Source of the DNA: Escherichia coli
Lineage (GTDB): Bacteria > Pseudomonadota > Gammaproteobacteria > Enterobacterales > Enterobacteriaceae
Assembly: GCF_048403405.1 (NCBI RefSeq)
Contig: NZ_CP183129.1
DNA: 64,000 nucleotides
Strand: one strand, 5' to 3'
Each line of letters starts with the position of its first letter. Within the stretch, counting starts at the first letter, position 1. The translations under genes were made by a program, and so were the position numbers. The notes under the pieces are model-generated. The model was not told the origin of the DNA, searched no databases, and was given only the letters and a program-made list of their open reading frames with translations. Of this stretch, positions 2,461 through 6,792 are shown piece by piece.

Positions 2461-3057
2461 TTAATCTGATCTCCGCTGCAACAATTTCGCCATATTAATC
2501 GACTCGACCAGCTGTGTCCTGTTGATCCGGGGTGAGTTGAGATCCATCACTTTTTGCCATAGTTCGATGGCTTGCGCGTAATTCGCCTGCATAAACGCAT
2601 CGGAAGCCAGCAGCATCAGAGCGGTGATTTCGTTAGAGTCCAGCGCGAGGGCTTTGTCGATCATTGCGCGAGTCTGGGCGGTCATATGCTGGCTGGCCTG
2701 GTAATAAAGCACCGTCGCCAGCGCCGCATACAGTTCAGCGTTCTCACCACGTAGTTGCAACGCCTGACGGTACGCCAGCAGCGAATTGCTGTAATCGTTT
2801 TGCCACAGATAATACTCGCCCAGTAACGCCCATTGTTCGCTGTTTTGTGGATTAGCGCGGATTTTATCCTGCAATGCCTGAAGCTGCGCTTCCGGGGTTT
2901 GCTGGCTGGCAAACTGATGTAGCGGATCGCGCTGACGCTGATACTCCGCACGTACCGCCTGCCATTTTGGACTTAACAGATAACTGCCGACACAGAGAAA
3001 TACCATCAAAATCGTGAGTGTTGTCAGCATTTTCACCGGTATTTGAGGCTGTTTCAT
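2461..3057 (-). CDS. nrfG: formate-dependent nitrite reductase complex subunit NrfG (TPR protein, heme lyase accessory)
   Basis: ORF track 220 aa; internal Met [14 protein letters not shown] gives the 198-aa length expected for NrfG; start overlaps nrfF stop. Confidence 0.85.
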
Positions 3058-3437
3058 CGCTTCGCCCTCACTCGCCAGAGGATCAGTATCATCAGCAGTA
3101 ACAACACCACTGGCAGCGCCCACAACACCAGCGTCTGACCGGTTAACGGTGGGTTATAGCGAACAAAATCTCCGTAGCGTTCGGTCATCCAGCCAATTAT
3201 TTCGACTTCACTTTTCCCCTCCGCCACCATGCTGTAAACCTGATGGCGCATACTGACTGCCACCGGCGCATTGGATTCCAGTAAGTTCTGATTCTGGCAC
3301 TGCGGGCAGCGTAACTGGCTGGCAATATTTAACGCCTGTTCCTGTTGTTGCGGATTGGCGAATTGCCAGGTGTCTACAACCTGAGCGCGCGCAAAACAGG
3401 TAAATAACAGCAGTAGCGTGAGAAGTCCTTTATTCAT
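3054..3437 (-). CDS. nrfF: NrfF, cytochrome c-type biogenesis protein (CcmH-like)
   Basis: 127-aa ORF with signal peptide and CPQC redox motif; overlaps nrfE stop. Confidence 0.9.
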
Positions 3438-5088
3438 CGCGCTTCCTCCCCCGCCATCCGCTTAACAATGCGCCCGCAATCATCAACAATCCTCCCCCCC
3501 AGATCCAGCGCACACCGCTTTGTACATACAAACGAAAAGCGTAACGATCCGGCCCAGTTTTCTCCCCCATGACCGCATACCAGTCATGGATGCCGTTCCA
3601 GCGAATTGACGGTTCCATCATTTGCTGACGGCGTGCTTCATAAAAACGCCGCTCCGGCGTCAGTTCACCAATGCGTTGCTGATGGTCAAACAGTGCCACT
3701 ATCGCTTTTTCGCTGGTGTAATTGCCTTTGGCTTGCAGATCGAGGCGCTCAAAACGGAAGGTGTATCCTGCCAGCGTCACCTGCTGACCCGGCTGTAAAT
3801 TCAGGCTGATCTCCTGACGGCTGACGCTGGAGACCACGATCCCTGCGGCAAATAACAGCACGCCCGCATGAGCTACCAGCGCCGGAAGCTGCACGCGTTT
3901 GCCAGAGACAAACGTCGCCAGCACAATCACCACCAGCATCAACAGACCAAACGGTAACGTCGCGCGGTTAAAATACGGCGCGCCAACGGAGAGGCGTCCC
4001 CAGCCCAGCAGGCCGTAAATCATCGGATAAAGCGTTCCCACCAGCACGATCAGGAGCACTGCGCAAAACAGCAACAGCGTAGCGAGGATTAACATTTCCC
4101 GCGATAACCCCGAAAAATGCACCGCCGGGCCACCGTCCCGCGCTCGCCAGCCATACAGAGCCAGAGACGCAAGGCTAATCAGTGCAAACAGGCTGAACAA
4201 CGGCACGGCGCGGACGTTATCCAGCGCGAACGCATGAACCGAAACCAGAATGCCAGAACGGACAATTAAGGTACCCAGCAGCGACAGCATCAGAGTAACT
4301 ATCGCCAGTAACAGCGACCAGTGGCGGAAAATCCCCCGCTGGCGTGTCAGGGACAAACTGTGCAGCAGCGCAGTGGCAGAAAGCCAGGGTAATAAAGAGG
4401 CGTTTTCCACCGGATCCCAGAACCACCAGCCGCCCCAGCCCAGTTCGCAATAGGCCCACCAGGAACCGAGGATGATCCCCGCCGTTAATGCGCTCCAGCC
4501 AGGTAGTGCCCAGCGCCAGCAAATTCGGGCGCTGGCACCATCAAACTCGCCGCGCAGTAAACTCCCCAGCGCCACGCTCGCCGCCACCATCAAACCGCCA
4601 TACCCGAGATAAAGCAGCGGCGGATGGAAGATAAGACCGGGATGTTGCAGCATCGGATTGAGATCGCGGCCTTCGATTGCTGGTGGAAATATCCGCACGA
4701 AGGGATCGGACCACAGCACTACAAACAGTAGCAGTGCGGCGAGCATGAGAGATAAAACGGCTAGCGTCAGCGGAAATAGCGGATCGGTTTGCTGCCGATA
4801 ATGCCAGGCAAACAGCGCGCTCCAGGCGGAAAGCAACAGCACCCAAAGCAGCAGCGAACCTTCATGACCACCCCATACCGCCGCCAGTTTGAGTTCCCAC
4901 GACAGCAGGCTATAGCTATGTTGGGCGACATAAATGACCGAGAAATCGCTGATGAGAAAACAATACGTCAGTACGCCAAAGGCGAGCAGCAGGAGCGCGA
5001 ACTGCGCCAGAATGCCGATGCAAGTGAGTCGCATCATGGCAGGCCAGCGCAACCGCACTCCCGCGAAGGCCGTCAACGGGGTCAACAC
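3430..5088 (-). CDS. nrfE: NrfE, CcmF-like heme lyase for NrfA
   Basis: Large polytopic membrane ORF (track 560 aa from a TTG); GTG at codon 9 gives 552 aa; start uncertain. Confidence 0.85.
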   Translation of the reverse strand: MLTPLTAFAGVRLRWPAMMRLTCIGILAQFALLLLAFGVLTYCFLISDFSVIYVAQHSYSLLSWELKLAAVWGGHEGSLLLWVLLLSAWSALFAWHYRQQTDPLFPLTLAVLSLMLAALLLFVVLWSDPFVRIFPPAIEGRDLNPMLQHPGLIFHPPLLYLGYGGLMVAASVALGSLLRGEFDGASARICWRWALPGWSALTAGIILGSWWAYCELGWGGWWFWDPVENASLLPWLSATALLHSLSLTRQRGIFRHWSLLLAIVTLMLSLLGTLIVRSGILVSVHAFALDNVRAVPLFSLFALISLASLALYGWRARDGGPAVHFSGLSREMLILATLLLFCAVLLIVLVGTLYPMIYGLLGWGRLSVGAPYFNRATLPFGLLMLVVIVLATFVSGKRVQLPALVAHAGVLLFAAGIVVSSVSRQEISLNLQPGQQVTLAGYTFRFERLDLQAKGNYTSEKAIVALFDHQQRIGELTPERRFYEARRQQMMEPSIRWNGIHDWYAVMGEKTGPDRYAFRLYVQSGVRWIWGGGLLMIAGALLSGWRGRKRDE

Positions 5089-5167
5089 GTTGACCCCGAG
5101 ACTTAACAACAACGCCAGAAAACCGACTTCAGGAAGGAATACGTCCAGAAACCACCTCTGTTCTGGC

Positions 5168-6124
5168 TTACGCCACCGTTAACTGCCCGGCGTAGAGAAT
5201 GAAAAAACGCAGCATCAACACGCCGACCAGGCTGGCCCCACACGCCGCCAGCACAGCAGGAATGCCGGAACTGCGATTGACCCACGGTTTGAGCAACATT
5301 GGCACAATCAGCCCCAGCCCGGCGACACCAAGCCAGAACCACCACGTCCAGAAACCGCCGCCCAATGCCGCCACCAGCGCACGCACTTTACCGTCATCGC
5401 CCAGGGCCAGTCCGACAAAAAACGCCACCAGCAGGAAGATTTCGCCCCATACCACAGGGATCTCCATACGGTGTACAAAGTGCGCTTCCGTGGAATGCGG
5501 GTTACTGCGTTGGCGTATCGCCATGGCGATCAGCGCCACCGCCGCACCGGACGAGATGCCGGAGAAGAGGAACAACACCGGCAGGATCGGGTTATTGAGG
5601 AACGGATACGATTTCAGCGCCGATAGCAGAAAGCCGGTATAAGCCCCCAGCAGCACCGCCAGCACCAGCATCAATGTTTCCAGTCCGCGATGAACGGGCG
5701 TCAGCAGGCTCAGAACCTTTTGCACGATCCCCAGCTTCGGCAACCAGCGTTGTTGCAGGGCAAGCAAATCATGTTCAAAGATTTTCGCCAGCCACAGTAC
5801 CAGCACCACCATGTAAAGCTGAAACAGCATCACCCCCATCGACATCACCGAGGTAAAACTGTAGTGGAACATCAGCTTCCAGAAGGTCCACGGTCTTGTC
5901 AGGTGGAAGACGAGGATCAACAGACCGAGGATCACCGCGCCCGGCCCGACAATCAGCGTGGTGCGCAGCAATGTGCTGTCTGCACCGCCCGCCTGCGGGT
6001 AGACGCGACGTAACATCACGGCCAGCGTCACCAGACCAGCAGAAATACCAATCAAAAACAGGTAGATGGCAATCGGCCAGTCCCACACCAGCGATTCAAA
6101 ATGAAATGCGGAAGTCTGCGTCAT
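5168..6124 (-). CDS. nrfD: NrfD, membrane quinol-interacting subunit
   Basis: 318-aa polytopic membrane ORF starting [17 protein letters not shown]; overlaps nrfC stop by 4 nt. Confidence 0.9.
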   Translation of the reverse strand: MTQTSAFHFESLVWDWPIAIYLFLIGISAGLVTLAVMLRRVYPQAGGADSTLLRTTLIVGPGAVILGLLILVFHLTRPWTFWKLMFHYSFTSVMSMGVMLFQLYMVVLVLWLAKIFEHDLLALQQRWLPKLGIVQKVLSLLTPVHRGLETLMLVLAVLLGAYTGFLLSALKSYPFLNNPILPVLFLFSGISSGAAVALIAMAIRQRSNPHSTEAHFVHRMEIPVVWGEIFLLVAFFVGLALGDDGKVRALVAALGGGFWTWWFWLGVAGLGLIVPMLLKPWVNRSSGIPAVLAACGASLVGVLMLRFFILYAGQLTVA

Positions 6125-6792
6125 TGGCTCACCTCCCCGTATTTAAACGGTACGCGGTACAGCTTCGGTTTGGTTCCCAGCGCCAGCTTGTAGCGGTAAG
6201 TGGGCTTCTGGCGCAGCAGTTGCGAAATCTCACTGTTGGGATCGTCCAGATTGCCAAACGTCAGCGCCTTCGTCGGGCAAGCCTCAACGCACGCGGGCAG
6301 CTTACCGGCCTGCAAATTGGTTTTACGGCAGAAATCGCATTTGTCCGCTGTCTTCGTGACCGGATGGATAAAGCGCACGCGGTACGGACAGGCGGCGATG
6401 CAGTACTGACAACCGACGCAGAGATCCGGATTAACATCGACAATCCCGCTGGCAGCGTCGCGAAAAGACGCACCGGTCGGGCAGACGTCAACGCACGGCG
6501 CATGATCGCAGTGCTGGCAAGACTTACGGAAAAAGCGATATTTCACATCAGGAAATTCGCCCTGCGGCTCGCTACGAATAATCGTCAGGCGCGAGACGCC
6601 TTCCGGCACCTTGTTCACTTCCCGACAAGCATCCATACAGGCGGTACAGCCGATACATAACGACTCGTCATGCACCATGCCGTAACGCACCCCATTGATA
6701 TTCAACGTTTTCGCCACCACGCGCCCTGCGGTGCCGCTGACGGCTGCCAGCACGCCGACGCCGGTGAGAAACTGGCGACGTGACCAGGTCAT
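6121..6792 (-). CDS. nrfC: NrfC, 4Fe-4S ferredoxin-type subunit
   Basis: 223 aa with four Cys-x2-Cys-x2-Cys-x3-Cys clusters and a Tat-like RRQFLTG leader. Confidence 0.92.

Follow-up and report, generated by a model that had tools for sequence, protein, structure and literature searches.

Introduction

Translational coupling has classically been described for gene pairs such as trpE/D (distance -1), galT/K (+3) and rplK/A (+3), in which the stop and start codons lie close together on one operon mRNA (PMC12548453). The nrf operon of Escherichia coli, which we analysed within a 64,000-nt stretch of chromosome (contig NZ_CP183129.1 of assembly GCF_048403405.1; hereafter the window), shares this layout, and the candidate mechanisms, RNA unfolding or scanning by 30S or 70S ribosomes, are the same (PMC12548453). 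For the classical pairs coupling was proven by mutation, whereas for nrf we infer it. A closer likeness is offered by the -4 (NTGA) pairs of Huber et al. (2019 and 2023; PMC6728339, PMC10666635), which have the same ATGA geometry, strand arrangement and internal Shine-Dalgarno (SD) motif as the nrf pairs and come from the same organism. The pairs tested in that work were hyfHI, astDB, ydbH/ynbE, menDH and bioBF, with the nrf pairs being tabulated only, and four of these five native E. coli -4 pairs were translationally coupled by experiment (PMC6728339). For three further pairs, a steep drop of coupling with distance was described, with about 20 nt nearly abolishing it (PMC10666635).

The haem lyase genes ccmF-ccmG-ccmH provide a second comparison, since NrfE, NrfF and NrfG are paralogues of their products. 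E. coli CcmH is a fusion of an NrfF-like and an NrfG-like part, whereas the E. coli nrf operon has separate F and G genes, joined solely by a 4-nt overlap. Unlike ccm, NrfEFG is dedicated to the CXXCK haem of NrfA (PMC12285233).

Our analysis indicates that the nrf overlaps are ordinary operon architecture in which the genes are probably coupled in blocks with matched synthesis rates, a reading to which we assign a probability of roughly 0.7 by analogy with the pairs described above. An earlier reading of the same DNA (the original prediction) had listed five 4-nt overlaps in the window and interpreted them as serial translational coupling, consistent with stoichiometric co-translation of complex subunits.

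Gene overlaps and internal Shine-Dalgarno motifs

At four of the six nrf junctions (nrfB/nrfC, nrfC/nrfD, nrfE/nrfF and nrfF/nrfG, hereafter B/C, C/D, E/F and F/G) the downstream AUG lies on or beside the upstream stop codon, and a good SD motif is found within the upstream gene. On the minus strand, 4-nt overlaps with a distance of -4 are present at nrfB/nrfC (6789..6792; CAGCCATGACCTGG), nrfC/nrfD (6121..6124; AGCCAATGACGCAG) and nrfF/nrfG (3054..3057; AAGCGATGAAACAG), and nrfE and nrfF overlap by 8 nt (3430..3437; ATGAATAA), a distance of -8 also being listed for K-12. Elsewhere in the window, 4-nt overlaps occur at yjcH/actP on the plus strand (11724..11727; GCATCATGAAAAGA; DUF485 and SSF domains) and at yjbF/yjbG on the minus strand (57772..57775; AAACAATGAGTAAA; Pfam YjbF and GfcC domains; -4 listed for K-12), and yjbG/yjbH overlap by 1 nt (TAATG) at 57038 on the minus strand (-1 listed for K-12). 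All five 4-nt overlaps read ATGA, in which the upstream TGA and the downstream ATG have TG in common. B/C, C/D, F/G, yjcH/actP and yjbF/yjbG are -4 nt overlapping unidirectional pairs, while E/F belongs to the -8 class and yjbG/yjbH to the -1 class. The five overlaps of the original prediction were found in the sequence at exactly the coordinates claimed, although its list had overlooked the 8-nt overlap at nrfE/nrfF and the 1-nt overlap at yjbG/yjbH. Re-translation, the check it had named, left gene boundaries and clean translations intact, and corrected starts do not remove the overlaps.

Every -4 and -8 junction has an SD match inside the upstream gene, with the duplex energies ranging from -6.8 to -11.5 kcal/mol (-7.3 to -11.5 kcal/mol for the four nrf overlaps). 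For nrfC this motif is AAGGAG (6798..6803, minus strand), which lies within the nrfB coding sequence, has an energy of -8.2 kcal/mol and is predicted to base-pair with CUGUUCC in a local hairpin. The motif of nrfD, GGGGAGGU, lies within nrfC (6131..6138, minus strand) and at -11.5 kcal/mol is the strongest of the window set, that of nrfF, GGGGGAGG, lies within nrfE (3445..3452, minus strand; -10.9 kcal/mol), and nrfG is served by an SD-like GUGAGGG within nrfF (3065..3071, minus strand; -7.3 kcal/mol). The nrfD and nrfF motifs are thereby the strongest among the nrf genes, and the weakest match is that of nrfA (-3.3 kcal/mol; 8837-8860, minus strand). No other product of the operon is as abundant as NrfA.

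With this geometry, a ribosome ending translation of the upstream gene would already sit at the downstream start, and local structure there would be melted. The same ribosome could then re-initiate (termination-reinitiation), or a new 30S subunit could load on the opened site, and by both routes downstream output would track upstream output. Coupling would act in blocks and not as one series. nrfA would be set off by a conserved hairpin spacer, while nrfBCD, encoding the electron chain from quinol to NrfA, and nrfEFG, encoding the haem lyase for the CXXCK haem, would each be internally tight. Between these two blocks lies a variable spacer, where nrfE has what is probably a weak CTG start in Escherichia, Citrobacter and Enterobacter. 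The likely gain would be matched synthesis rates per block and not assembly of subunits during translation.

Conservation of gene spacing across nrf loci

Using a degenerate DNA probe for the NrfE motif WWFWDPVENAS[LF]LPW, we retrieved 120 loci from contigs representing one genome per species. The probe could be ruled out as NrfE-specific, since most of the 120 matches were ccmF loci, and the 23 loci with nrf context, from Enterobacterales, Aeromonas and Vibrionaceae, were used to map stops and candidate starts. Vibrio variabilis (L104) and Aeromonas bestiarum (L114) were left out of the C/D count owing to apparent frame disruptions, located towards the 3' end of nrfC in the former and towards the 5' end of nrfD in the latter, which are probably assembly indels.

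Tight spacing was found at B/C in 14 of 14 loci, six Enterobacterales and two Aeromonas having -4 and six Vibrionaceae +1, and at C/D in 15 of 17 (-4 in seven Enterobacterales, -4 or -1 in Aeromonas, -1 to +2 in seven Vibrionaceae). Where nrfE and nrfF are adjacent as separate open reading frames (ORFs), in 12 loci, the distance is -8 in eight, -13 in two Serratia and -4 in two Vibrio; otherwise they form a single fused ORF, in Citrobacter werkmanii, or probably have an intervening extra gene, in six loci. At F/G, the seven loci in which the two ORFs are separate all have a -4 ATG, and in Aeromonas schubertii the two are fused. Over all loci, the four junctions range from -13 to +2 nt or are fused. 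The spacing at A/B was 42-66 nt in every locus, and that at D/E varied from -8 to +175 nt (21 loci). Closeness was kept at four junctions and not at A/B or D/E, a contrast that speaks for selection for tight spacing at the four.

On this pattern the operon appears to be divided into three translational blocks, namely nrfA, nrfBCD and nrfEFG. The idea of serial coupling does not survive in its original form, since the overlaps are not one unbroken series. In E. coli nrfA and nrfB are separated by a 44-nt spacer with a hairpin (7356-7399), and the run of overlaps is interrupted again by the 19-nt nrfD/nrfE spacer (5149..5167, minus strand; 79 nt under the K-12 annotation), which contains AGAGGUGG and precedes a CTG start. 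The three blocks defined by spacing match functional modules, and this leads to a concrete prediction of expression ratios during anaerobic growth on nitrite.

Genome-wide context of the overlaps

Of the 34 pairs of co-directional neighbours in the window, 8 (23.5%) are spaced by -8 to +6 nt. The figure for E. coli K-12 is 707 of 2,987 pairs (23.7%), with -4 being the commonest spacing (PMC10666635), and an unusual density of overlaps in the window is ruled out by this agreement. Starts are placed non-randomly relative to upstream stops, yet this is the genome-wide norm. The nrf overlaps were already known, the same pairs having been tabulated with the same distances for K-12 in 2023, and they are ordinary bacterial operon architecture, no spacing of bacterial genes being more frequent than the 4-base stop/start overlap. 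According to that supplementary table, the K-12 distances are -4 for nrfB/C, -4 for nrfC/D, +79 for nrfD/E, -8 for nrfE/F and -4 for nrfF/G, together with -4 for yjcH/actP, -4 for yjbF/G and -1 for yjbG/H (PMC10666635). The same report gives cross-phylum median distances for COG pairs, which are -4 for NrfF>NrfG (n = 362), -4 for CcmF>NrfF, -3.4 for YjcH>ActP (n = 467) and -0.4 for HybA-type>NrfD-type (n = 215) (PMC10666635). Our literature search found no paper on translational coupling in nrf or on the nrfE start codon. To regard the overlaps as operon architecture is a correct but routine reading of little consequence, and all that they establish is that translation could be linked.

Start codons and alternative explanations

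The starts of nrfC, nrfD, nrfF and nrfG are soundly annotated. Curated family models come within at most 4 residues of the annotated N-termini, with residue 2 of NrfC corresponding to profile position 1, residue 5 of NrfD to position 1, residue 3 of NrfF to position 2 and residue 1 of NrfB to position 1. The NrfG model has 8 additional N-terminal positions, which correspond to a longer Citrobacter N-terminus that itself begins at a -4 ATG. In addition, the twin-arginine (Tat) motif SRRQFL of NrfC occupies residues 4-9, and a cross-genus comparison of the loci showed that the overlapped ATGs are retained in other genera. The start assignments were accepted because of these model N-termini and this ATG conservation, along with Pfam boundaries and signal sequences. 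One might still suppose that the overlaps are annotation artefacts that would vanish with real starts further downstream, given that the length of nrfE differs among gene callers (540, 552, 560 or 572 amino acids) and that codon 10 of nrfG is itself an ATG. However, nrfE is not among the claimed overlaps, the alternative nrfG ATG is without an SD motif, and the overlapped ATGs coincide with the N-termini of the curated models, are kept across genera and already place the NrfC Tat motif at residue 4. Misannotated starts are ruled out by the model N-termini, signal motifs and conservation, and we give this explanation practically no credence.

With the starts secure, the overlaps might nevertheless have no coupling role, each gene being initiated independently at its own strong SD and ATGA being merely compact and easily evolved. 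The start codon already provides three of the four ATGA bases, and a 2025 review puts the abundance of -4 spacing down to ease of evolution (PMC12548453). Moreover, no complex is known for 69.6% of short-distance E. coli pairs (PMC10666635), and the SDs of overlapped starts equal or exceed those of leader genes. Predicted accessibility is not lower at the overlapped starts, where the unpaired probability was 0.35-0.59 compared with 0.25-0.64 at leader genes, with no difference between the two. Because overlapped starts are as accessible as leader-gene starts, independent initiation from the strong internal SDs would be possible. This equal accessibility also weighs against block-wise coupling, as do several other points: bioBF is a -4 pair without coupling, the one in five tested (PMC6728339); nrf coupling itself is argued by analogy with other native E. 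coli pairs; the three-block picture is drawn from spacing only; the Vibrionaceae stand at +1 or +2, so that the conserved trait is gene closeness and not overlap; and of the four nrf overlaps, B/C is the only one with a fold more stable than its shuffles (z = -2.8, compared with -0.2 at C/D, -1.5 at E/F and -1.3 at F/G). Centroid folds have the SD paired at B/C, C/D and E/F, but with a z below -2 at B/C only and an accessibility like that of leader genes, masking RNA structure was dropped as evidence for coupling. Against the absence of a coupling role stand the four junctions that keep within -13 to +2 nt over three orders while A/B and D/E drift by tens to hundreds of nt, the coupling of four of the five native E. 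coli -4 pairs that were tested, and the outright fusions into which E/F and F/G turn in some taxa. On balance we regard purely independent initiation as unlikely, and block-wise coupling is retained as the preferred reading.

A stronger form of coupling can also be envisaged, in which the overlap enforces 1:1 co-translation and nascent subunits assemble from neighbouring ribosomes. By sequence, NrfB has a signal peptide of the Sec type and NrfC a Tat signal, whereas NrfD is a polytopic membrane protein. By the established export pathways, NrfC leaves the cytoplasm folded, after cluster insertion, and NrfD is inserted into the membrane. Assembly during translation is implausible because NrfB, NrfC and NrfD use different export routes and meet only after export. 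It is true that co-translational complex formation is named as an advantage proposed for overlapping pairs (PMC10666635), that subunits of heteromeric complexes are enriched 4.5-fold among short-distance pairs (PMC10666635), and that NrfC/NrfD and NrfF/NrfG are probable complexes. A 1:1 NrfC:NrfD complex is assumed by homology to PsrBC, and NrfF/NrfG, which are treated as a complex, correspond to two halves of one polypeptide in the E. coli paralogue CcmH (PMC12285233). A curated table scores C/D and F/G as complexes; B/C, E/F, yjcH/actP, yjbF/G and yjbG/H are scored as not (PMC10666635). The soluble periplasmic cytochrome NrfB binds its partners transiently, and it is with NrfA that it forms defined NrfA1B1 or NrfA2B2 complexes (PMC12285233), yet nrfA and nrfB do not overlap. 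Furthermore, coupled pairs may differ several-fold in output, as rplJL does. Enforced co-assembly is therefore very improbable, and a rule equating overlap with co-assembly fails both for NrfB/NrfC and for the non-overlapped NrfA/NrfB. From the original proposal of stoichiometric co-translation of complex subunits, matched synthesis can be kept, which fits NrfC/D and NrfF/G; the proposal does not fit B/C, given the transient binding of NrfB, and the extension to complex subunits at yjcH/actP and yjbF/yjbG is not supported, both being scored as not complex. Matched synthesis rates are plausible; assembly during translation is not.

The nrfE start codon

The start of nrfE is placed by PGAP at a CTG (5148-5146) and by the K-12 annotation at a GTG 60 nt downstream, which is codon 21 (5088). 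E. coli shares this CTG, at the corresponding position, with E. albertii, three Citrobacter and one Enterobacter (L010, L013, L028, L032, L103); it lies 8-19 nt past the nrfD stop and has an AGGTG motif upstream. An earlier start is impossible in Citrobacter because of an in-frame stop two codons before the CTG. Across these relatives at least 10 codons after the CTG are free of ATG, GTG or TTG, the first in E. coli being a TTG at codon 13. Over codons 2-20, we counted 18 synonymous and 8 nonsynonymous differences summed over five relatives, and in these comparisons nonsynonymous changes do not outnumber synonymous ones. The alignments to family models begin at residues 2-5 of the protein read from the CTG, and residues 2-572 correspond to profile positions 1-573 of NF007691. 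A search for NrfE homologues, which sufficed for the start codon and not for diversity, returned only Escherichia, Citrobacter and Salmonella among the matches listed.

From these comparisons nrfE appears to initiate at the conserved CTG codon, which makes it a candidate for a rare non-canonical start in E. coli. Tentatively, initiation at this CUG, 8-19 nt past the nrfD stop, might be carried out by ribosomes that have just finished nrfD. The genes nrfB to nrfG would then form one chain with a step-down at D/E, and NrfEFG would be far scarcer than NrfBCD. We consider this extended scheme conceivable but doubtful.

Fusions, insertions and losses around nrfE, nrfF and nrfG

In C. werkmanii (L010, ~6520-6615; protein P0071) an inverted pair of repetitive extragenic palindromic (REP) sequences, GCCTGATGGCGCTGCGCTTATCAGGCCTAC ... 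GTAGGCCGGATAAGGCG, lies between nrfE and nrfF and replaces the E/F overlap. This insert reads through in frame to give an annotated NrfE-NrfF protein of 737 amino acids. Proteins of C. cronae and many from Salmonella also have 737 amino acids, and the linker peptide of a Salmonella protein (P0113) is near-identical, while other Salmonella NrfE sequences (P0094, 575 amino acids) have an end resembling that of E. coli NrfE. Rare NrfE-NrfF fusions of 650-665 amino acids were also found in E. coli (P0003-P0024), nearly all in clusters of one or two members and with the junction WRGGSAMHKGLL. Frameshifts of 1 nt in the G-run that directly precedes the 8-nt overlap, or errors in its sequencing, could account for this pattern.

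Loci of Vibrio, Aliivibrio, Moritella and Aeromonas (L012, L021, L030, L038, L047, L086) have a stretch of about 0.5-0.7 kb between nrfE and nrfF that probably holds an extra gene, which may encode a CcmG/DsbE-like thioredoxin. In A. schubertii (L086, 8866-10311), one ORF contains both the NrfF-like and the NrfG-like part, which is also the arrangement of E. coli CcmH. Pluralibacter gergoviae (L082, ~6750-6830) yielded no NrfF homologue, and nrfG follows nrfE nearly directly there, which suggests loss of nrfF in that species.

The nrfA/nrfB hairpin

The nrfA/nrfB spacer includes a GC-rich hairpin, UUCCGCCUC-GCAA-GGGGCGGAA (7373..7394, minus strand; z = -3.6 for the fold of the junction). A GC-rich hairpin of 7-10 bp was found directly past the nrfA stop in each spacer examined (L010, L013, L074, L076, L082, L086, L103, L114). 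Its position and pairing are kept in these eight other taxa while the sequence changes between genera, for example AUCGCCCG/CGGGCGAU and GGGCCCCGC/GCGGGGCCC. The E. coli hairpin has no U-run after it, was not called in the terminator scan and had no Rfam match at E <= 1, and it was accordingly rejected both as an intrinsic terminator and as a member of a known RNA family. It may act as a stabiliser of the mRNA 3' end or as a decoupler that lifts nrfA over nrfB-G.

Genomic region and gene identity

The window belongs to the E. coli chromosome. Several complete genomes match it at 100% identity over positions 2400-9200, and the region is carried by more than 5,400 genomes. In the RefSeq/PGAP annotation of the 100%-identical strains, nrfABCDEFG occupies 8836 to 2461 of the minus strand and has acs-yjcH-actP, which is encoded on the plus strand, at its flank, with the yjbEFGH operon further along at 54.9-58.8 kb. 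Gene boundaries mapped to window coordinates agree with RefSeq/PGAP, and all full-length coding sequences translate cleanly. A scan for promoter-like and terminator-like signals showed no excess of either inside the operon, and nrfABCDEFG is treated as a single operon in the literature (PMC12285233).

All seven proteins, NrfA to NrfG, exceed curated NCBIfam cut-offs in the profile search and are assigned to the nrf operon. The first gene, nrfA (7400..8836), encodes the cytochrome c552 nitrite reductase (NF008339, 872 bits against a cut-off of 595) and has no overlap with nrfB (6789..7355), which encodes a pentahaem cytochrome, ends in TGA and matches profile positions 1-187 of 188 of NF008659 with residues 1-187 (310 against 184 bits). 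The 4x[4Fe-4S] subunit with a Tat signal is encoded by nrfC (6121..6792; TIGR03149, 419 against 378 bits), and the membrane quinol dehydrogenase subunit by nrfD (5168..6124; stop TAA; TIGR03148, 466 against 348 bits). The CcmF-like haem lyase subunit is the product of nrfE (3430..5148 with the PGAP CTG start), which scored 1162 bits with NF007691 (cut-off 394) and 601 bits with a second NrfE model, TIGR03145, under the cut-off of 927 for that model. NrfF (3054..3437; stop TGA; TIGR03147, 209 against 159 bits) is a homologue of the N-terminal part of CcmH, and the last gene, nrfG (2461..3057; NF007692, 399 against 306 bits), encodes a TPR protein homologous to CcmI. All seven genes are on the minus strand.

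Outside the nrf operon, a segment of 1,725 bp at 17735-19459 of the window is missing from strain MS 69-1, in which ghxP is truncated and soxR and most of soxS are gone. Over this segment the window agrees with strain TUM14771.

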